A stretch of 63,653 bases of DNA, counting the filler, from Rhabdomonas costata (lineage: Eukaryota), in the NCBI GenBank assembly GCA_019059605.1. It is 49 parts of 49 records of this genome, joined end to end, with 100 filler letters (N's around TTAATTAATTAA, not from the genome) between each part and the next. Parts side by side here need not be neighbours in the genome. Positions count along the whole stretch, not along the records: positions 16,923 to 18,124 come from JAHMHO010023818.1; 48 more parts are not named here. One strand, written 5' to 3'. The notes under the pieces were generated by a model. That model was not told where the DNA came from. It saw only the letters and a program-made list of their open reading frames with translations, and did no database searches. A program made the position numbers and the translations under genes. Positions 2,101 to 54,387 of this stretch are shown one piece after another. How positions within the stretch are numbered: the first letter of the stretch is position 1; every line of letters begins with the position of its first letter.

Positions 2101-3296
2101 CTGCAAGAAACAGAAAAGGCACACGCATAAAAACAGCTGACCAACTCAAGGATCCTCTCCATAGTAAAAGATGACAAATAATTCCGAGACTGTGTGGCAC
2201 TCGTTGCCCGAGGGCTTTTTGACCCCAAGGCATAGTCTTCCCTATAAACTCCTTCTTGCACCACAACCTTCCCTTGCTCGCTTGTGAAGTCCCCGGGAGG
2301 CCCCAACAAAGATTCAAAATCTAAAACGACCATAAAAAGCTCGAAATTATCAAAATTAGGTATAAAAAAGCAGCCCCAAACAGGCCAAATGACCCGAAAT
2401 AGGCAAAAATGGACAAAAAAAATAAGCAGGATTTGCTCATAAAATAGCATCTGTGTCGTCAAATGTGTCCCATATCCCCTGAAAAGTCAATGTTGAGATA
2501 CNNNNNNNNNNNNNNNNNNNNNNNNNNNNNNNNNNNNNNNNNNNNTTAATTAATTAANNNNNNNNNNNNNNNNNNNNNNNNNNNNNNNNNNNNNNNNNNN
2601 NGGTTTTTTGTAACATCCACTCGCTCGCTCGCTCACTCAGTCTTTGCACAAGGGTTGAACATGACCTCTCTGCGTTTCACAACTCCATTTTTGCAGACCC
2701 TACCAGTGGTTTGCTTCAAGTTCTTCTCTTTCCGGCTGGAGCTTCCGATGAGAAGGTTTGCTTTGCGTCCGTCGGTTTCCAAGCCGGAAGGTTTGGCGTA
2801 CTCTGAGCTGGCTTTAGTTAGTTTAGTCTCGATGGTCACGAGATCTCCTCTGCGCTGCAATGCCCCGTCTGTGCCGACCGTCTCCACAGTTCAGTTCAGT
2901 GAACGGCATTGTTAGTGCACCGGCTGAGTGCAGGATGTTCAGGATTTCGCCCAAGATGCAAAAGCCAACAACCTTGTTGGGTGTAGGAGGGTGAGAGCAG
3001 CACCACAGCTTTCGCTCCCTCTTCCTCTTCTCTCTCTTATTCTCTCTTCTCCGACCTTTCTTTTTTGGCGGCCCTTCCACACTTCCATTCACTGGTTCCT
3101 TCTCCTGCAGTTCTCTGTTCCCCCCCTCCCCTTCCCTTCCCTTCCCTTCTCACACCAAGGAAAAAAGAGCGGTCAAAGATTGGAAGGGAAGGGAAGAAGG
3201 GAATGATGCTAAGGGATAAGGATTCAGAAAGAAATCGTAGACATACAGACAGAATGAATTTACAATATGCACAGAAGAGAGTGGGAAGGAGGTGTG

Positions 3297-3351
3297 GTGT
3301 GCGTGTGCGTGTGCGTGTGTGTGTGCGTGTGCGTGTGCGTGTGCGTGCGTG
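3297..3351. repeat. (GTGCGT)n microsatellite; a second tract at 3911-3992
   Basis: Direct inspection. Confidence 0.95.
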
Positions 3352-4054
3352 CAAAGAGCCAGAGCGGCCCTTGGTGTCACACAGAAATGTTTTCCGGGAT
3401 GGAAATGCGGTTGACATAATTGCATTAATTGCGAAGAGAAATACATACCCGAATGCAGTTAATGCTTAGGATTCTGACCTAAAAGCAACGCAAATGGGGG
3501 GGGGGGTCGCCAGCCGGTCGGCCAAGAGGACGGGCGACGGCCTGAGCTACAAGGGAAGACATACAACGAGAGAGAAAGTGGAAGAGCATTTCTTAGAGAA
3601 GGTTCTGATGGCCATACAGGTTGGTTGCGAACTTGACGAACTTTGTGAAGGAAGTGAAGACCAGGTGCTCTTGCACCTTTGCAGGTTTTATTAAGGCCAG
3701 GGTTGACACATGTTGCCAGGTTGAAGAGCTTCGGCGTCATCCTGGGCTGAGTTTGAATCCTTTGCGACATCCTGTGCCCCGATCCGCGTGCTGACCCAAA
3801 ACANNNNNNNNNNNNNNNNNNNNNNNNNNNNNNNNNNNNNNNNNNNNTTAATTAATTAANNNNNNNNNNNNNNNNNNNNNNNNNNNNNNNNNNNNNNNNN
3901 NNNGTGTTGGGTGTGCGCGCGCGCGTGTGTGTGCGTGTGCGTGTGCGTGTGCGTGTGCGTGTGCGTGTGCATGTGCGTGTGGGTGTGCGTGTATGATCGA
4001 CGAGCAGAGACTGACCACGAAAATCGGGGCTCGGAATCAAACGAAACTAATTAC

Positions 4055-12238: not shown

Positions 12239-13297
12239 CTGCAAGGGGTGGGTGCGCGCAACCTGCAGTGGCCCGTTCGTGTAGCCCAAACCATATATGT
12301 GTATATATGTGTGTTAGCCGCCAAAGACAAGGGTCTTGTCAAGTAGTGCATGTGTGTGGGCACCATTGGTACGTTTACGAGAAATAGTGAGTATCCGTGA
12401 AGCTTTTTTTTTGGGGAGGGGGGTGTTAAACGGCCACTACGGCCGCACCTCGGGCTCGCCTGCGCGACGCTGGCATTCGCCACTATAAAAACTCTGTGCC
12501 TTTTCGCCTTTCTTGGGCACTGCTCCCAAAATCGCCCTCTAACACACCTCTAACACACAGGAAAGGCATCTCGATAAAAAACTTCCGGTATCGTGACACA
12601 CCGTTTAACACCCTCCCACCCCCACCAAAAAAGAATGCACCGGACCGTTCTCGTGTTCCTTCTGGTGAATTGTCTGTGTGGTGCTGCACCGCAACCCCTC
12701 AACTGCTCATGTGCCTGAGTCATGACCTTAAGTATCCTCAGATTAAATACCAAGGGCCAAAACAATACAGGATAAGTACTGTACAGCCCCCCACCCCCTC
12801 CACTTTAGTGTTTTGTAATTCAACGTGATGGCAAGCAAAATCAAAGGGGGGCAAAGAAAGGAACAGGAGATGAACCAACATTGCAAGACTGCGTTCCGCG
12901 TTCACTTACCACCAAAANNNNNNNNNNNNNNNNNNNNNNNNNNNNNNNNNNNNNNNNNNNNTTAATTAATTAANNNNNNNNNNNNNNNNNNNNNNNNNNN
13001 NNNNNNNNNNNNNNNNNTGTGTGGTGTAGAGAGAGACATCCCCAGCTTTCCCGCGGGGAGTCCTGTGCCTGGCGTGGGTGGGCTCATTCGCCTCTCCTGG
13101 CGTGAACGCATAGAGAACCAATGTCGGGAGTTGGCTTTCTCTTCACCTGGACTACGGTTGCAGCTGATTTATGACTTCGTCATGCTCGTGACGTCTTTGG
13201 GATTTTGTGCATCTGTGCTGAACGACCACCTCTCGGAGACTATGCCTTGGCTTTTGCATGGTAACAGGAAGGATTTGTGTGCTTGTGCGTAGAACAG

Positions 13298-15747: not shown

Positions 15748-16810
15748 TTAGGGGCCGTGACGGGCGAGACGATGACCTTCACGGAAGAACGGGTGCTGCA
15801 ACAGGTCTGCACACGACGGCCGCGCCCATGGATCCTTGCTCAGGCACAGCCTCAGCATCTCTCTCAGAGCCCCAGAGGGGCACGCCTCGGGGCTTGGCAG
15901 CAGCGCCTCCGGACTGCGGTTCCCCGAAGCGATGTCGTGGATGCACGCGAACAGCATCATCGCATTCTGTATGCTCTGGTAGGGCACGGGAACTTTTCCC
16001 GTGAGCAGAACGATGGCAGTGATTCCCAGGCTCCAGACATCCCACGTCGGTGTGCGCCGGGAGTGGGACGCGGCCTCGGGGGGAAGGTAGAGCAGGGTAC
16101 CCAGCTTGATTTCGGCTGAGCTGGATGAGCCAGTCGACTCGAAAGGAAGGGCCAGGCCAAAGTCAGCGATCCGCACGACCCTCTCCGCAGTGAGGAGCAC
16201 GTTGGCCGGTTTGAGGTTGCCGTGCACCAAGTGCACTGCGCGGTACACAGGGTGCACCAGGTCCCCTTTCGGGCCAAAAACCGCAGCTCGGGTTAGGGCG
16301 GCGCAATGCTTCTTACACCTCAAGGCCAGTTTCTTCCGCTCCTATGCCGGCATCCGGTCCGGTTGTGCTGCCACAACGCAAGGTTCAATGCGCGCGACAG
16401 GAAAAGAGGTGGGCGCGCACCTTCGTCATGGAGGAACTGCAGCCCCTCGACGACTTGCCGGAGGTAAAATTGGCACATTCCTGTCTTGATACTTCCTCCA
16501 CTTTCCAGGACGTCCTCCAGGGAGCCGCTCAGCCACTCCATTACAATAAGCTGCCGCGACTGGAGGTCAATCACATCATAGAGGTGCACAACGTGACAGT
16601 GCTCGATTCGCTGCAGAATCTTTGCCTTTTCGTTTTTTTTTTTCAAAAAGCTAATAGCAGCAAGGAAAAATTGCGACTGGCAGAGCTACAATCACAAGGG
16701 GGACGCACAGCACCTCTCGAAGATGAATGGTTCTGTACTTCCCCCCGGTGACCTCCTTGATGGCCACGCGAATCCCACGGGTCTTTTCGATTGCCGGGTA
16801 AACGAACCCG
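15748..16810 (-). CDS. Ser/Thr protein kinase-fold protein (STE/MAP3K-like), probable pseudokinase (HGN instead of HRD)
   Basis: Exons ~16714-16810, 16421-16625 and 15748-16235 with GT-AG introns 16626-16713 and 16236-16420. Motifs: VAIKEV, LIVMEW, HGNLKPANVLL, IADFG, GTLLYLPPE, DVWSLG, RPSCADLLQHPF. Confidence 0.88.
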
Positions 16811-16971
16811 CTCCCAAACACCNNNNNNNNNNNNNNNNNNNNNNNNNNNNNNNNNNNNNNNNNNNNTTAATTAATTAANNNNNNNNNNNNNNNNNNNNNN
16901 NNNNNNNNNNNNNNNNNNNNNNTGTGTTGGGTGTGCTTGATTTTTTACTGAAAGGCTAGGGTTTTTATCAT

Positions 16972-17034
16972 CGCACCTCTAAGAGCCAGATGTTCGCACG
17001 ACTCGACATTTGGTGTCATAGGGTGCGCAGATAC
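16972..17034 (+). ncRNA. Single-hairpin AGA-box (H/ACA-like) pseudouridylation guide snoRNA, copy A; predicted target LSU rRNA helix-69 3' region (yeast 25S Psi2264 equivalent)
   Basis: Basal stem CGCACC/GGUGCG; upper stem GCCAGAUGU/ACAUUUGGU. Pocket strands UAAGA and GUCAUAG are complementary to conserved LSU CUAUGAC-UC-UCUUA. AGA box at 17029-17031, 14 nt below the upper stem. Confidence 0.85.
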
Positions 17035-17131
17035 GCACGGTTTTGCTCTTTGGGTGTTTTCGTTCTGCCCCCCTTTTTGCCATTGTCGTAGTTTATCTTT
17101 TCTTTCCTCAGCAAACCGACTTCTCTTCCGT

Positions 17132-17192
17132 CGCCTCCCTGAGACGAATGTCCTTCTCCGTGGACATTTGGGAACTCTGAGTGCGCAGATCG
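17132..17192 (+). ncRNA. Single-hairpin AGA-box guide snoRNA, copy B (different pocket; tentative target LSU GAAGUUUCCCUCAGG region)
   Basis: Basal stem CGC-CUC/GAG-UGCG; upper stem CGAAUGUCC/GGACAUUUG. Pocket CCUGAGA / GGAACUCU; ends GUGCGC-AGA (17187-17189) like its neighbours. Confidence 0.7.
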
Positions 17193-17393
17193 CTTCTCTT
17201 TTTGGAGTACTCTGAATTTACAGTGGCCTTAGACTTTTTCTTATGGATGTTTTCATGGACTTCTAAATGGCGTTAGCTCCAGGCGTGGAAGGGCACCTGG
17301 ACCTGTCTCATGAAGGTTGCCAACGTGTTGGCTCTTCGTCAATAGGCTACATCGTCTGGCTTTCCTGAGTTATTCTTTCGCGATTCGAGTGCC

Positions 17394-17456
17394 CGCACCG
17401 GTGAGAGCCAGATGATTGCATTTTTCGGCATCTGGAGTCAAAGGGTGCGCAGACTA
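17394..17456 (+). ncRNA. Single-hairpin AGA-box guide snoRNA, copy C (diverged paralogue of A/D)
   Basis: Basal stem CGCACC/GGUGCG; upper stem CCAGAUG/CAUCUGG (a G-U pair of A is G-C here). Pocket GGUGAGAG / AGUCAAAG; AGA at 17451-17453. Confidence 0.75.
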
Positions 17457-17778
17457 CTTTGTGAATTTCATCTGAAGCGAAACGTTCGATTGAGGAGCAT
17501 CGTTGCACGTTTTGCGGGAGCGTGTCCGAGGGCACCGCGACGCTGATGAAGTGCTGTTTTTCGCTGTTGAGGCCTGTTAGGTAGGTGCCCTTGAGTGAGG
17601 CTTAAGGGCAATCCCCAGAGAAAGATAGGAAGAGGCCGGCCCGAGACCTACCTCTCCCCCGCATGTGTCGGGTATCTCCCGTTTCTCCCCTGTTCACTTG
17701 CTCCTTTGCCAATTGACCATTTCGCTTTCTTTTTCTTTTTTTCTTCGGTACTGAAGTGGAAGGGGGATCTTCTAGCGC

Positions 17779-17841
17779 CGCACCTCTAAGAGCCAGATGT
17801 TCGCATGAATCGACATTTGGTGTCATAGGGTGCGCAGAACT
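17779..17841 (+). ncRNA. Single-hairpin AGA-box guide snoRNA, copy D (near-identical to copy A)
   Basis: Identical to 16972-17031 except for 2 substitutions, both in the apical region above the upper stem; AGA at 17836-17838. Confidence 0.85.
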
Positions 17842-18475
17842 CTTCTGGTAGGATGCAATATCCCCCTTTTGCCCTTTGTTTATGCAGTTTTTCACCGCAG
17901 CCATGGGCAAGTTTTGTTTTCTTTTGGCCTTGGGCGACTGCAGCGGCACACTGGGATCAACCCTGAAAGGTTTTCCAGTGAGATTTGTATCGCGAATCTT
18001 GCCGATGTTGTGGCAAGGTGAGCGAAGATCAGGAAAGACTGGTTTCAATTCCTTCGCCTGGTCATCGATTTCGTTTTTTCTTCAGCTTTCATTAGCGGTT
18101 GCAGCGGTTTCTTTCTTCGAAAACNNNNNNNNNNNNNNNNNNNNNNNNNNNNNNNNNNNNNNNNNNNNTTAATTAATTAANNNNNNNNNNNNNNNNNNNN
18201 NNNNNNNNNNNNNNNNNNNNNNNNTGTGTGTGGTGGTGATCACGCCCCTGCCTGCCTGGCATTGCGTTCGATTTTCATGGGTAACCGTGCCAAGCAAAGA
18301 TCCACGGTGAGAAGGGAAAAAAATGCCAACATTTTTTTTGTCAAGAACAACGGAAGAGGGGCGATGGGAGGAGTAAAGTTGGAGGACAACAATGAATTCT
18401 GACCATCGCCACTTAGTAGTGTGGCACGTGTGGCTTCCCCTGCGACGCAACAAAAAGGAAGGCAAAACTGTATAC

Positions 18476-27860: not shown

Positions 27861-29187
27861 GGAGGAGGGCTCTGCTGCTGCCGACCACTCCCCGCCATCT
27901 AGCAAGACACCCATCTGGCCATATTTTCTACGAATCGATTTGGGTTTGTGTGCGTAGTACTTTGTGCCGCCAGAGGCACGTTTGTAGGCTGTTCGCCAAA
28001 TCTATTTTATCACAATGGCGGATCGGTTCAGTAGTCCCGAAGCCTTGTTCTTCGTTGCAAATTCCTTGCTGCTTGGGTGGCAGAGGAACCAGACAGGCCA
28101 CTTGGAGGGTGTGACACTTGGAGTAGTCTGGATTGGATTGGGTTTCCCAAATTCTCATCGATTCCACTGCTCTCTAGCGAAAATGCCCACTTTAGTGGCC
28201 GCCGGGTTCCATTCCAGGCCTTACGGTCGTGCTATGACTTTCTACGGAGGTTCCTTGCAACCTCTCTTTTCAGTTTCACTGTTCTTTTCTTTTGCTTCTT
28301 GCCGTTTTCCTCTGCTTCCTCTCCATCGCTCTCGCTCGCTCATCCACTTGTCCTTTGTAAAACATTTGTGGGTGTCTGGGTACTTTTGTGCCTTGTGCGT
28401 CCTTCGGTGCCCCGCCGTTGCCCTCTTCCGGCGCTCGTTCCTTTTTTCCACTGATTTCTGATTTGTGCCCCGGCACTGTTGTAACGCATGTCAAAAACCA
28501 ATACGGACATTCCATCCGTCCTGCTCGAAAAACCACANNNNNNNNNNNNNNNNNNNNNNNNNNNNNNNNNNNNNNNNNNNNTTAATTAATTAANNNNNNN
28601 NNNNNNNNNNNNNNNNNNNNNNNNNNNNNNNNNNNNNTTGGCATGTCGAGAACCTCGTCTGGGACGAGGACACCGCCAGAGGCTCCAAGGGAAGGTTTGT
28701 GTGTGTTCGTGTGTTTGTGTTTGTGTGTGTGGGGGATACTGACTCACTTTCGCATCGTGCAGCCTCAGCCTACCGCTTCGGAGAGGGGGAGGGAGGGCCC
28801 GTGTGCTCCACCGGAAGCATCGAGAAAAGAAACACACTGGAACAATTTCAAGAACCCAAAGCAAAATTAGGATTACCGAATTCTTTCACTTTATGGAAAC
28901 CGGTACTGCTGTTACCAAGGCTAAACTGTAATATCGAACCCTTTTAGCTCGGGTCACGCTGGAGCGAATGGAAATGCCCCAATGCGCAATTCGATGTTTC
29001 CATGACTTTAATGAAAAACCCCAACCATCTTAAACTCAGAATTTCGTATTGTAACTTACCTTGCTGTAGCCGGTGACTGTCCTCTCCAAACATCCTCAGC
29101 GCAAGGGCCATTGATTGTGTCCATCCTCACATTCTCTCGCTTTGTCTGTGTTTGTGTGTGCCTGGCTCATGCGCTTTGTGTGAGCAG

Positions 29188-49340: not shown

Positions 49341-52300
49341 ACCCCNNNNNNNNNNNNNNNNNNNNNNNNNNNNNNNNNNNNNNNNNNNNTTAATTAATTA
49401 ANNNNNNNNNNNNNNNNNNNNNNNNNNNNNNNNNNNNNNNNNNNNGCTCTGGTTCTCACTACCCGGGAAGGTTCCGAAGCAAACTGATAAAAAAAGCTCT
49501 TTCACAAGGTCGGTTGTTTAACCCAACCGTGCAGAACAAGGGGGCCTCCCGTCTCCTTCCATTCCTACATCCCATGAAGAATTCAACCAAAAGAGCATTT
49601 CCCTTTTGCTGGTTTGTTCTTGTCCAAAGGTGTATAATCGGCTGAACTTGCCAAATCCTCTGTGGCCTCGCCCTCTGCAAAGATACAACCTAACTCAGCA
49701 CAAACATATCTGCGATACAAGCTGGATGTTTGACCCCTGCTGCACACATGCTCGTGTATACGGAGACAAAAGAAACTTACCTACTACTCTACACTGCTTG
49801 CGGACTTCCCGAGGCTTAGCCGGGTCTGAAAGCAGATCCTACTGAATGACATTCTGACATGGGCCCAAATGCCACCGGCCAATTTTGCCTGAGCGATGAC
49901 CCCATTCATAAAAACTTAGCAAGGTTCTTTCCTTGCGGACGATCTTTAGGTGGACTGTGGTCCATGCTGAGGTGTGCGCAGTACCCGCTGGTGGCTCCAC
50001 CTCAGCCCCAGGCTGACTAAGGAGCCCACTGCCCACAACACGTGGGGCAGCCACAGGAGCGAGGCAGCCAAAACGGTGCTCCCGATGGCTCCCACCACAC
50101 ACGCGGCCTGCAGGGCCACCGCAGTCCATGGCGTGCACACAAAGGCAACAAACCTTTGGGGCGCAGAGAAAGCTGGCGCTGGGTTAAGCCAAACCCCATT
50201 GTGCACCATTGCGTGTGGGCACACTCCTGCGCCAACCACTTTATGATTAAGGGTGCTTGGAGATTGCAGTAATTGCCCAGAAAACGTCGCCAAACATTTT
50301 CTCGATCTCTAAAATCAGAAAGGTGAGAAAGAAACCAACACAAATGGGCTGGCAAAGCAGAATTGGCTCAATGGCTCATTTCCGAAGAAGAAGCTTTCGT
50401 TGGGAAAACCCGTTACTGTGCCCCCCGTTAGGCCAGGGTCTGTTTGTTTAAGTATGTAAATGCAAGGAACGCCGCAGGGGGTGGGGTAGCTGAGCATGTT
50501 TTTAATGCACAACGTTTTCAAAAAGTAATGAGCAGTTAACCTTGCACGCGAAAAGCACCATAGGAATGTTTCGGCTTCGACTTTAACATGAAGTATATGT
50601 GAAAAAAAATCCCAAGGGCAGATGATGAAACCCCAAAACCACCCCCNNNNNNNNNNNNNNNNNNNNNNNNNNNNNNNNNNNNNNNNNNNNTTAATTAATT
50701 AANNNNNNNNNNNNNNNNNNNNNNNNNNNNNNNNNNNNNNNNNNNNGGGGTTTTGTGGGACTGCTGAGGCCTGGAGGAGTTCCGCAGAAAAGCCTTTATG
50801 AAACCTGTAAACCCGCAATAGCCTGCATGAATTCTGCAGAAGCCATGAAGTGAGCAGGGTCCAAAAAGGTCCGAAGTCCCGTGCCCCAGCTAAGACGTTT
50901 GCAGTTCTTTGTGTGGTCAGAAAGTGTAGTAGGACCCCACGCAGAAAAAGGGGCGAACGAGAGGTCCTCCGAGCCGTGAAGTCCGGTGATGTGGATGACC
51001 GCAGAGAGTGAACTGCTGTGATGGTTGATCGGTGTCACTATGGTTTGTCAAGGATCTCATCCTCCAGCACGAGAGGAGTGATCCAGGGCCCGAGAAGTGG
51101 ACGTGAGGCCGGAAACTCCGAAAGCTGCGCTGGGGGAAGAAGAGCCTGCACGCAACAACACATCGTGCTCCTCCTTTATGTCACTATTGATTTGGGTCTG
51201 TGCAGGTGACTGACTCACTTCACCATACGCTGTCGTCGCGGTAGCTGCCGCTTGTGGTTCGTTCGCGCCCATCGCTTTTTCTCACTGACAAAAAAATGGG
51301 AGGAGAGATTTGGGAAAGGGGAGTGGGGGGGGGGGCAGAACTTGCGATCCTTTTATGACATGAGTTATTATGAACCCGTCCCGGAATAAATTATCTTTTC
51401 GCTGCCAGTAGTCATCACCCCTGCATCATCCATAGCAGGCACTCGCCCACATGCACACCCCAACACACAGAGCTCCGAGAAATTCTCCGGGTCCTTCTCC
51501 TTCACTGCCTGGAGCCTCGCCCTGGCCTCCCACCCGACCGCAGCGCCTTCCTCTCCACCGCCACCACCTCCTCCAACTTCCTTCGCCCTCCTTCTTCTTC
51601 GTCATTGGCGGCCTCTGCTGCTTCTTCGGCGGTGGAGGCTGCATCCTGCCCGCCTCCACCACCCCTGCTATCGTCTGTTGCACCCTCGCCCTCAGCGTTC
51701 CTACCCCCGGGGCTGTGGGGAGGCTCTCCGCGGCACCCCGGTCATAGCAAGCCCGGATTCCTGTTTGCGCTGCAGCACCGGATCTGCCAAGGGGAGCCCT
51801 CGCTCGACGACAGCGGAGGTGAGGGTGCAAGGGGATTTTTATTGAGCTGAGGAGGAGGAGGGGAGAAGGTGCATTTGCCTCGCTTTGGCCCTAGCGTGGT
51901 TCAAATACCAAAAGCCTGAAAACCTGAAGAAAAAAATCTCCACACACNNNNNNNNNNNNNNNNNNNNNNNNNNNNNNNNNNNNNNNNNNNNTTAATTAAT
52001 TAANNNNNNNNNNNNNNNNNNNNNNNNNNNNNNNNNNNNNNNNNNNNGGTGGTGGGGGGGTAAGGTGATGCGCCCCAGCAAAGGTGTCATAAAAGTGGCG
52101 CTGCCGCAGGAAGAGCTCCCAGGAGTCCCCTGAGAGTTCCACTTGCTCGACACTGTCTGGTGCGCTCATCACAGAAACACAGCGCAGGAAAAAAAACTCC
52201 CACTGGGTGCACAACCAGGAACACAAGGGTACACCCGAGAAGACATCCACGCTTTCCGTTTGCTACAGTTAAGGGAAGCAGAATGACGCTTGAATGACGA

Positions 52301-53373: not shown

Positions 53374-54387
53374 CAGTAGAGGTGCCTCAGGGCCGCGAAC
53401 TGCTTGGCGTAAAACACGCAGCACGTGAACACGGTGCGGCTGCACAGGTCAGCTTCCTCGTCACAGGACGGGCACTCAACAAACTCTAATGGAATGATGT
53501 GCCTATGTGTCTGTGTGTGTGAATGTATCTGTGTGCTTATAAGTTCGTTGTGATGCAAAGCACATGCTTCCGCGAGCGCATCCATAACTCTCCTATCGAG
53601 GCGGCAAACTCGCGTCATTGTCGGGCGTGCAAAGCGAGGAGGTGAGAACCCCCCCCCGCTGGTTTTTCGATCATTCATACTGACTACACATGGCCAATAC
53701 GGCCCCCACCAAAGCATTTCCAGATGTTTCTAGTGACTCCACTTTGTATACGTAGCCAGATTGGTGATTGCATCGGGGAGGACTACTCTTTTTCTCCCAA
53801 AAAAAACTGTCAAAGGGTTTTATGAAGGTGAACCTCCCCCCATCGCCAATAAAATTCGGCACAAGCTCACCAAAAACCCTCCATCCGTGGGCACACCAAA
53901 ATGAAAAGTAGCACGTGTACAGGGAGTACATCGCAAAACTATCCCTCAACACTCCGTTCCCCGTACCTTCCGCCACAAGTGCCACAAGAACAAACATAGC
54001 ATACTGTACTCCACGTGGGTCTTCTCCTTGCACAGCAGCGCGGCCACAGCTGAAGCAAAACGACCCCCCGTGCGCAGAGCCAGTGTGGCCATTGGTTTGC
54101 AAGCGTGATTTTGGGTTCACAGGATGCCACACGATCCTCTTCCTTTCGCGCCTCCTGCCACTGCTTCCAACTTGCAGGCATGCAGCCTGGGTTGTGAGCG
54201 AACGAAGACATTGGAGCACTCTCTTCCACTGAGCAAAGATAGCCTAGGGGCATACCAAGCTCGCCCCCCATAAGTGTGGGGGAGCGGGTGCCCAGCAGAG
54301 GGGAAGCCGCGAACGTTGGAGGGGTGCCCTGGTCCTCGTCGCCCGCCGGTGCTGCACAACACCCCGACCCCCTCGTTCCCGGAGGTT
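53374..54387 (-). CDS. Probable Fab1/PIKfyve-like phosphatidylinositol-3-phosphate 5-kinase, exons at start of PIPK domain
   Basis: Exons 54256-54387 and 54005-54049 join in frame (..MGGELAVAALLCKEKTHVEY). Exon 53374-53439 gives RTVFTCCVFYAKQFAALRHLY, resembling the Fab1 FxxxxYxAxQFxALR motif. An intervening exon was not resolved. Confidence 0.55.

Follow-up and report, generated by a model that had tools for sequence, protein, structure and literature searches.

Guide RNAs for pseudouridylation that consist of a single hairpin with an AGA box, are encoded in clusters and are released by polycistronic processing are established in trypanosomatids (PMC2613932), and clustering of the genes for modification-guide small nucleolar RNAs (snoRNAs) is described for both trypanosomatids and Euglena (PMC2784804; PMC2613932). 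According to the criteria given in the Psiscan paper, 100 known trypanosomatid H/ACA-like RNAs are single hairpins of 57-91 nt with a basal stem (stem I) of 5-8 bp, 1-3 nt before the AGA, a 5' pocket strand of 5-11 nt, a perfect stem adjoining the pocket and a target U located 13-16 nt from the AGA (PMC2613932). In T. brucei, helix 69 in the ribosomal RNA (rRNA) of the large subunit (LSU) is described as carrying four adjacent guided pseudouridines, with TB7Cs1H1, TB9Cs5H1, TB3Cs2H1 and TB11Cs6H1 as their guides (PMC4855143), and for Euglena more than 200 snoRNAs have been catalogued (PMC6366073). In this study, a stretch of 63,653 nt from the Rhabdomonas costata assembly GCA_019059605.1, referred to as the window, was analysed. 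One of its contigs, at positions 16923-18124, carries a genuine cluster of pseudouridine-guide genes of this already well-known class, and we consider it highly likely that the cluster comprises four single-hairpin AGA-box H/ACA-like guide genes on the same strand, designated A to D, of which A and D are aimed at a uridine of helix 69.

The initial annotation had placed the four elements on the same strand with starts at 16972, 17132, 17394 and 17779 and had them end in GTGCGC-AGA. Reading of the sequence located all four at these starts on the plus strand, with that ending in 4 of 4, inside the single contig and within a span of 870 nt. Element A (16972-17034) is a predicted guide of 63 nt. 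It is composed of a basal stem (16972-16977 paired with 17022-17027), a 5' pocket strand (16978-16984), an upper stem with apical loop (16985-17014), a 3' pocket strand (17015-17021), the spacer nucleotide C 17028 and the AGA box (17029-17031), followed by an assumed tail of 3 nt. Element D (17779-17841, AGA 17836-17838) is near-identical to A, likewise has 63 nt and shares the predicted target of A. Element C (17394-17456, AGA 17451-17453) is a predicted 63-nt paralogue of A and D with altered pockets, GGUGAGAG on the 5' side and AGUCAAAG on the 3' side. Element B (17132-17192, AGA 17187-17189) is a predicted guide of 61 nt, and its pockets, CCUGAGA on the 5' side and GGAACUCU on the 3' side, are unlike those of A and D.

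When the pocket and the AGA tail were held open in folding, all four elements adopted the architecture that had been proposed for them, a basal stem, a pocket and an upper stem, with energies of -21.9, -19.0, -20.8 and -21.9 kcal/mol for A, B, C and D. The basal stem has 6 bp throughout and is perfect in A, C and D, with one bulged U in B. In these constrained folds the internal loop measures 7-8 nt on each side, the apical loop 7-8 nt, and from the pocket onwards the upper stem is paired without interruption over 7-9 positions if G-U is counted. The 5' pocket strand has 7 nt in A, B and D and 8 nt in C; one spacer nucleotide separates stem I from the AGA in every element, and the distance from the upper stem to the AGA is 14 nt in A and D, 15 nt in C and 16 nt in B. 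Unconstrained, the hairpins of A, B, C and D fold at -25.5, -20.8, -21.6 and -26.3 kcal/mol, with z-scores of -3.3, -1.7, -1.7 and -4.3, and equally good folds were obtained from none of 200 dinucleotide shuffles for A and D, 13 of 200 for B and 9 of 200 for C.

These values were compared with the trypanosomatid ranges, to which the class definition applied here adds an upper stem (stem II) that adjoins the pocket with at least 3-7 bp, an apical loop of at least 5 nt, rRNA complementarity of 3-9 bp on either side of an unpaired U-N and an AGA located 3 nt from the mature 3' end. The predicted sizes from stem I to three nucleotides past the AGA (63, 61, 63 and 63 nt) are those of the single-hairpin class, and A-D all lie within the ranges for stem I, AGA spacer, pocket size, U spacing, stem II and apical loop. 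The clustering of genes on one strand is also seen, with four on the plus strand here and related clusters in two metagenome contigs (L025 and L026). In the foreign rRNAs that served as stand-ins for those of the host, bipartite complementarity was found for A and D; for B and C none that is convincing appeared. An assignment to canonical H/ACA RNAs, which have two hairpins joined by an ANANNA hinge and an ACA 3 nt from the end, was rejected: each element has one hairpin, unconserved spacers of 97-322 nt lie between them, and the box is AGA.

The failure of standard models to find the locus, which had been predicted, was borne out by Rfam release 15, which gives no family match. At the gathering threshold on the whole window Rfam returned no match for the elements, and at E <= 10 on the cluster contig it returned no H/ACA family, the only hit being a chance match to a long non-coding RNA (E 3.8). 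The description of the locus as unannotated holds only insofar as Rfam lacks a model for it; A-D may already be contained in the Euglena snoRNA catalogues.

The elements were also set against what the window yields by chance. The exact 9-mer GTGCGCAGA occurs five times in the window, four times in the elements and once at 54070, where no hairpin was seen and where the covariance model described below finds nothing. A strict generic scanner for AGA hairpins, based on published criteria and run on both strands of the 49 contigs, yielded six candidates, with A, C and D among them; B is missed because of the bulge in its basal stem. On 20 mononucleotide-shuffled windows the scanner gave a mean of 1.45 candidates (range 0-5). 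The other candidates, at 12796-12860 (plus strand), 29080-29148 (minus strand) and 50897-50965 (plus strand), were rejected; they are without a good rRNA target, and as many would be expected from the background rate. Being paralogues, the four elements do not count as independent events: A, C and D align with 71-91% identity over 69 nt, and B has its 3' 28 nt in common with the others at 75%.

For A and D it had been claimed that the pocket strands GUCAUAG and UAAGA pair with the LSU sequence CUAUGAC-U-C-UCUUA. This is correct, with 7 + 5 Watson-Crick pairs and no G-U, and in the folds the upper stem, at the foot of which the predicted target U would sit, lies 14 nt from the AGA. Stand-in rRNAs were collected by an exact scan of prokaryote genome contigs with a 22-nt LSU motif, which gave at least 24 loci, and five of these were annotated with Rfam. 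All five contain a complete eukaryotic LSU rRNA, and the small subunit (SSU) rRNA is complete in four and partial in one (L012). The five loci are evidently eukaryotic ribosomal DNA (rDNA) inside prokaryote assemblies; a scan of viral contigs with the same motif gave no match. The best site for A and D in the stand-in rRNAs is the 3' strand of the conserved helix 69 stem of the eukaryotic LSU, and for the pairing to take place in the host, its LSU rRNA would have to contain CUAUGACUCUCUUA. When only Watson-Crick pairs are counted, 3 of 3000 shuffled pockets reach 12 pairs in the approximately 25.5 kb of stand-in rRNA.

In the literature the LSU motif is described as a conserved rDNA site that homing endonucleases of the I-PpoI type and R2 elements target; the endonuclease target is given as bases 1915-1938 and overlaps the universally conserved helix 69 at 1906-1924 (PMC2602781). 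Counted along the oligonucleotide published there, the predicted U would be bacterial position 1921. Yeast Psi2258 and Psi2260 (Psi, pseudouridine) are equated with E. coli 1915 and 1917, and Psi2264, which is guided by snR3 and corresponds to human Psi3747, is placed in the stem of helix 69 (PMC2794176). The offset is 343, and position 1921 therefore equals yeast 2264. The proposed equivalence of the site with yeast 25S Psi2264 holds by this counting of positions through the two papers (PMC2602781; PMC2794176).

To find relatives of the elements, metagenome contigs were scanned once for exact matches to a 22-mer taken from the 3' part of A and D. Two contigs matched, L025 and L026, and together they provide nine further family members. 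In L025 (1167 nt) there are two occurrences of an A-type copy, one C-like copy whose 3' pocket is changed and a truncated B-like copy; the contig has an internal repeat unit of about 1063 nt, a sign that the cluster is repeated in tandem. L026 (1490 nt) carries five A-type variants on one strand. Two of its 5'-pocket variants, ATTAAGA and TTTAAGA, stretch the pairing at the same LSU site to 7 + 6 and 7 + 7, which is the outcome expected from selection on the helix 69 target. The assignment of this predicted target to A and D is well supported.

A covariance model (R1) was built from nine copies, with B excluded, and was run with filters off on the window, L025 and L026. Across the three loci it finds 13 members at E <= 0.01, and B is recovered by this model, to which it had not contributed, with 21.6 bits and E 0.0023. 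The remaining matches of the model in the window have E >= 0.069 and are antisense to the same elements or noise, and in the other 48 contigs (about 59 kb of genome sampled) no copy was found. The initial annotation had itself raised the possibility that the elements are dispersed fragments of a miniature inverted-repeat transposable element (MITE) or a short interspersed element (SINE); this absence from the other contigs speaks against it, as does the arrangement of the metagenome loci, which are same-strand clusters. BLAST comparisons between the three loci showed similarity limited to the elements of about 65 nt, with unrelated spacers, and no other block of the cluster contig is conserved in L025 or L026.

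The pattern of differences between copies was then resolved by region. The alignment used is the one based on the covariance model, as a MAFFT alignment of 12 copies misaligned B and under-counted pairs. All 13 copies share one scaffold, made up of the basal stem, the core of the upper stem and GUGCGC-AGA, and carry at least six different pocket pairs. Stem I and the AGA are the most alike, with pairwise identities of 0.84-0.90, followed by stem II (0.64-0.77) and the pockets (0.62-0.68); the apical loop reaches 0.40 and the flanks 0.38-0.48. The proposed pairing holds in 88.8% of cells and falls to 33-51% when the 3' strand is slid. Between A and D, 58 of the 60 positions from stem I to the AGA are identical, and the two that differ belong to the apical loop, where every difference between L025_a and A/D is found as well. 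The A/D duplication took in about 26 nt of 5' flank (16946-17031 against 17749-17838, 83% over 90 columns), and by arithmetic from the alignment about 17 of the 30 flank columns are identical.

Several observations weigh against the cluster being one of four working guides. The occurrence of the helix 69 site in 5 of 5 stand-ins is circular, because the loci were fetched with the motif itself, and once G-U pairs count as well, 12 pairs are also attained by 91 of 1000 shuffled A/D pockets. The covariation signal is weak, with a two-sided change in one pair and with 66-169 of 500 shuffles attaining the values observed. The structure is conserved but unproven by covariation because the copies are too alike, and the conservation of the stems could partly stem from recent duplication or gene conversion among close paralogues. 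Some of the metagenome copies look degenerate: L026_3 and L026_5 have changed boxes or stems, and L025_b, the B-like copy at 309-356 on the minus strand of L025, is without the entire upper stem. As L025_b keeps the basal stem, the GTGCGC-AGA end and a conserved ATCGCTT tail, it is probably a dead copy. No C/D snoRNAs were found beside the four elements, and the known clusters, as described for trypanosomatids, usually mix both classes (PMC2613932). Finally, the foreign stand-in rRNAs contain no convincing target for B or C. For C, the pairing at helix 69 is matched somewhere by 50 of 500 shuffles, and with contiguous arms 779 of 1000 shuffles equal its score.

These last points lead to the question whether the family is genuine with the A/D type alone at work, in which case B, C and several of the metagenome copies would be decaying pseudogene isoforms. 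We regard this as possible, if rather doubtful. Element C differs from A and D in both pocket strands, and the G-U pair closing the upper stem is lost in it. Among the stand-in rRNAs it still pairs best at the same helix 69 site, where it keeps 10 Watson-Crick pairs and one G-U pair with one mismatch, and it is without a significant stand-in target. The bulged basal stem of B, the missing upper stem of its L025 relative and the less distinctive folds of B and C (z -1.7 for both) point in the same direction. On the other side, B and C retain the basal stem, an upper stem of 7-9 bp, the AGA and a legal spacing of 15-16 nt, and B is recognised by a model built without it. The rRNAs searched were also foreign ones, and Euglena rRNA is described as having 349 modifications, the highest number reported to date (PMC7672448). 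Because so many of these modifications are lineage-specific, a target of B or C that is missing from foreign rRNAs says little. For B there is in addition one match in a single eukaryote (L024), where its pockets pair 7 + 8 around a U in a variable SSU hairpin, a result reached by 1 of 1000 shuffles. This site is at SSU position ~1319, on the minus strand of the locus and upstream of a conserved SSU block, in rDNA that lies in a prokaryote metagenome-assembled genome. The match is a lead only, because the rRNA is foreign and the pocket self-complementary, and it could point to the target region of B in the host SSU.

It is improbable that the elements are instead a short structured repeat, such as a MITE-like or satellite hairpin, that spread or was duplicated locally, has no guide function and matches rRNA fortuitously. 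Terminal inverted repeats of 6 bp are one way to read the basal stem, the copies are paralogous and partly degenerate in the metagenome contigs, covariation is not significant, and with G-U pairs allowed 9% of shuffled pockets match rRNA as well as those of A and D do. Such a repeat does not, however, agree with the confinement of the family to one of the 49 contigs, with the clustering of all 13 copies in a single orientation at three loci, or with conservation that stops at the AGA and leaves changes between close copies to the apical loop. The Watson-Crick-only match is moreover rare among shuffled pockets and falls on a known pseudouridine site, and the 5'-pocket variants of L026 improve this same pairing. 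Least probable, and very unlikely in our judgement, is that the RNAs are expressed AGA-box hairpins other than Cbf5-dependent guides, belonging to the 'AGA-like' class of trypanosomatids or acting as rRNA-processing or chaperone RNAs, since the complementarity and spacing of A and D with respect to a known pseudouridine site are those of canonical guides, even though RNAs of the same structural features that remain stable upon CBF5 knock-down have been described as a class (PMC2613932) and B and C are without assigned targets.

Taken as guide genes, the four elements suggest the following mechanism, modelled on the guides of trypanosomatids and Euglena. The cluster would belong to the nuclear genome of a euglenozoan, probably a euglenid, and its single precursor transcript would be trimmed to RNAs of about 61-63 nt with ends about 3 nt past the AGA. 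By the same analogy these RNAs would bind the pseudouridine synthase complex of Cbf5, Nop10, Gar1 and Nhp2. The pocket strands of A and D are predicted to pair with LSU rRNA on both sides of the U in CUAUGAC-U-C-UCUUA, a pairing that would put this U (bacterial 1921, yeast 2264, human 3747) 14 nt from the AGA, where the upper stem begins, and the positioned helix 69 uridine would there be isomerised to pseudouridine. The paralogues B and C have the same scaffold with other pockets; C may serve the helix 69 site as a weakened isoform or, like B, guide a host-specific site.

Compared by description with the H/ACA-like snoRNAs of trypanosomatids, the elements share a single hairpin of about 60 nt, AGA in place of ACA, a stem I of 6 bp, 1 nt before the AGA, a spacing of 14-16 nt, a bipartite pocket, clustered genes on one strand and, as predicted for A and D, the targeting of a helix 69 pseudouridine. 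They differ in that trypanosomatid clusters, as described, mix C/D and H/ACA-like genes, whereas this cluster is of H/ACA-like genes only, and in that the host appears to be a euglenid and not a kinetoplastid. Single-hairpin pseudouridine-guide RNAs of Euglena gracilis were reportedly described by Russell, Schnare and Gray in 2004 and by Moore et al. in 2018. Likened to these by description, A-D are of the same class and probably of the same lineage. The yeast guide snR3 and the guide of human Psi3747 have the same predicted target nucleotide and the same pocket logic as A and D, and snR3 is described as guiding two further sites (PMC2794176). The yeast and human guides are built from two hairpins with H and ACA boxes, in contrast to the one hairpin and AGA of A-D. 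Archaeal guides carry ACA and have an L7Ae-binding K-turn in the upper stem; in A-D no K-turn was seen, though no search was aimed at one. As described for archaeal H/ACA sRNAs, one hairpin with one pocket suffices as a guide, which is also the form seen here (PMC2613932).

The window consists of 49 contigs of 1195-1202 nt in roughly descending size, chained by the linker TTAATTAATTAA between runs of N (48 copies), and contigs that stand side by side in it are therefore not genomic neighbours. The G+C content ranges from 0.40 to 0.61 over the 49 contigs and is 0.494 in the 1202-nt cluster contig, which has linkers on both sides. The spacers between the elements had been described as 100-320 nt long and partly pyrimidine-rich, in agreement with the measured 97, 201 and 322 nt and with their composition. 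The pyrimidine-rich spacer between A and B (17035-17131) and the one between B and C (17193-17393) are unconserved in the related loci, and the spacer between C and D (17457-17778) ends in ~30 nt that repeat, in diverged form, the 26 nt upstream of A. A canonical pair of C box and D box with rRNA complementarity was not found in the spacers, and neither the spacer between B and C nor that between C and D contains a recognisable C/D snoRNA. Two loose C-box...CTGA pairs in the spacers were rejected, having no complementarity of at least 10 nt to the stand-in rRNAs. The contig had been called free of open reading frames, which is nearly right: one stop-to-stop frame of 159 amino acids runs on the minus strand at 17605-18081, and it has no Pfam match.

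Of 124 stop-to-stop frames of at least 110 amino acids in the window, 120 were scanned against Pfam. Matches were obtained in five: two kinase pieces, a LOG domain and part of a mitochondrial carrier passed the threshold set by Pfam, and Pol_BBD fell below it. Two of the four frames outside that scan were scanned separately, together with seven other frames and with slightly different coordinates, and gave a beta-lactamase fold and Transposase_21. ARAGORN found no tRNA in the window, and a Euglena spliced-leader motif had no matches in it. The protein kinase domain at 15751-16685 (minus strand), on the contig that adjoins the cluster contig in the window, is divided between two frames that overlap, which points to a short intron or a frameshift; the best homologue of the kinase piece is from the euglenid Rhabdomonas costata (EukProt EP00906, 44% identity), and the searches yielded no other pointer to the taxonomy of the host. 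The contig at 6508-7709 (G+C 0.614) has one frame open from end to end with a beta-lactamase/CubicO-peptidase fold (Pfam E 1e-33), the best homologues of which are bacterial-type metagenome proteins at about 32% identity, and this contig could be a contaminant or a transferred gene. The best protein matches of the LOG-domain frame are bacterial-type only. The contig at 37747-38947 (G+C 0.402) gives a strong match to Transposase_21 (tnp2, CACTA-type; E 3.5e-95) on the minus strand and the weak Pol_BBD match on the plus strand. GTGTGC hexamer microsatellites were observed in two separate contigs, at 3292-3347 (9.5 copies) and 3911-3992 (13.7 copies). The Euglena gracilis draft genome is reported to comprise 2,066,288 sequences with an N50 of 955 and less than 1% coding sequence (PMC6366073); the window, with contigs of about 1.2 kb, resembles it in sparse coding and split frames, and this is a resemblance only.

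The cluster leaves the current understanding of RNA-guided pseudouridylation unchanged. It demonstrates that AGA-box guides are recognisable from raw sequence, even in a very fragmented and unannotated assembly and where no Rfam model finds them, and the covariance model R1 together with the two metagenome clusters is a starting point for the annotation of helix 69 guides in euglenids. The shared scaffold with its varied pockets is a small, concrete case in which to study how guides change specificity after duplication. A more tentative suggestion is that the family preserves a record of new pseudouridylation specificities coming into being as a helix 69 guide was duplicated locally and its pockets mutated; if this is true, B, C, L025_c and L026_4 would have been neo-functionalised to guide modification at lineage-specific sites of the heavily modified euglenid rRNA.

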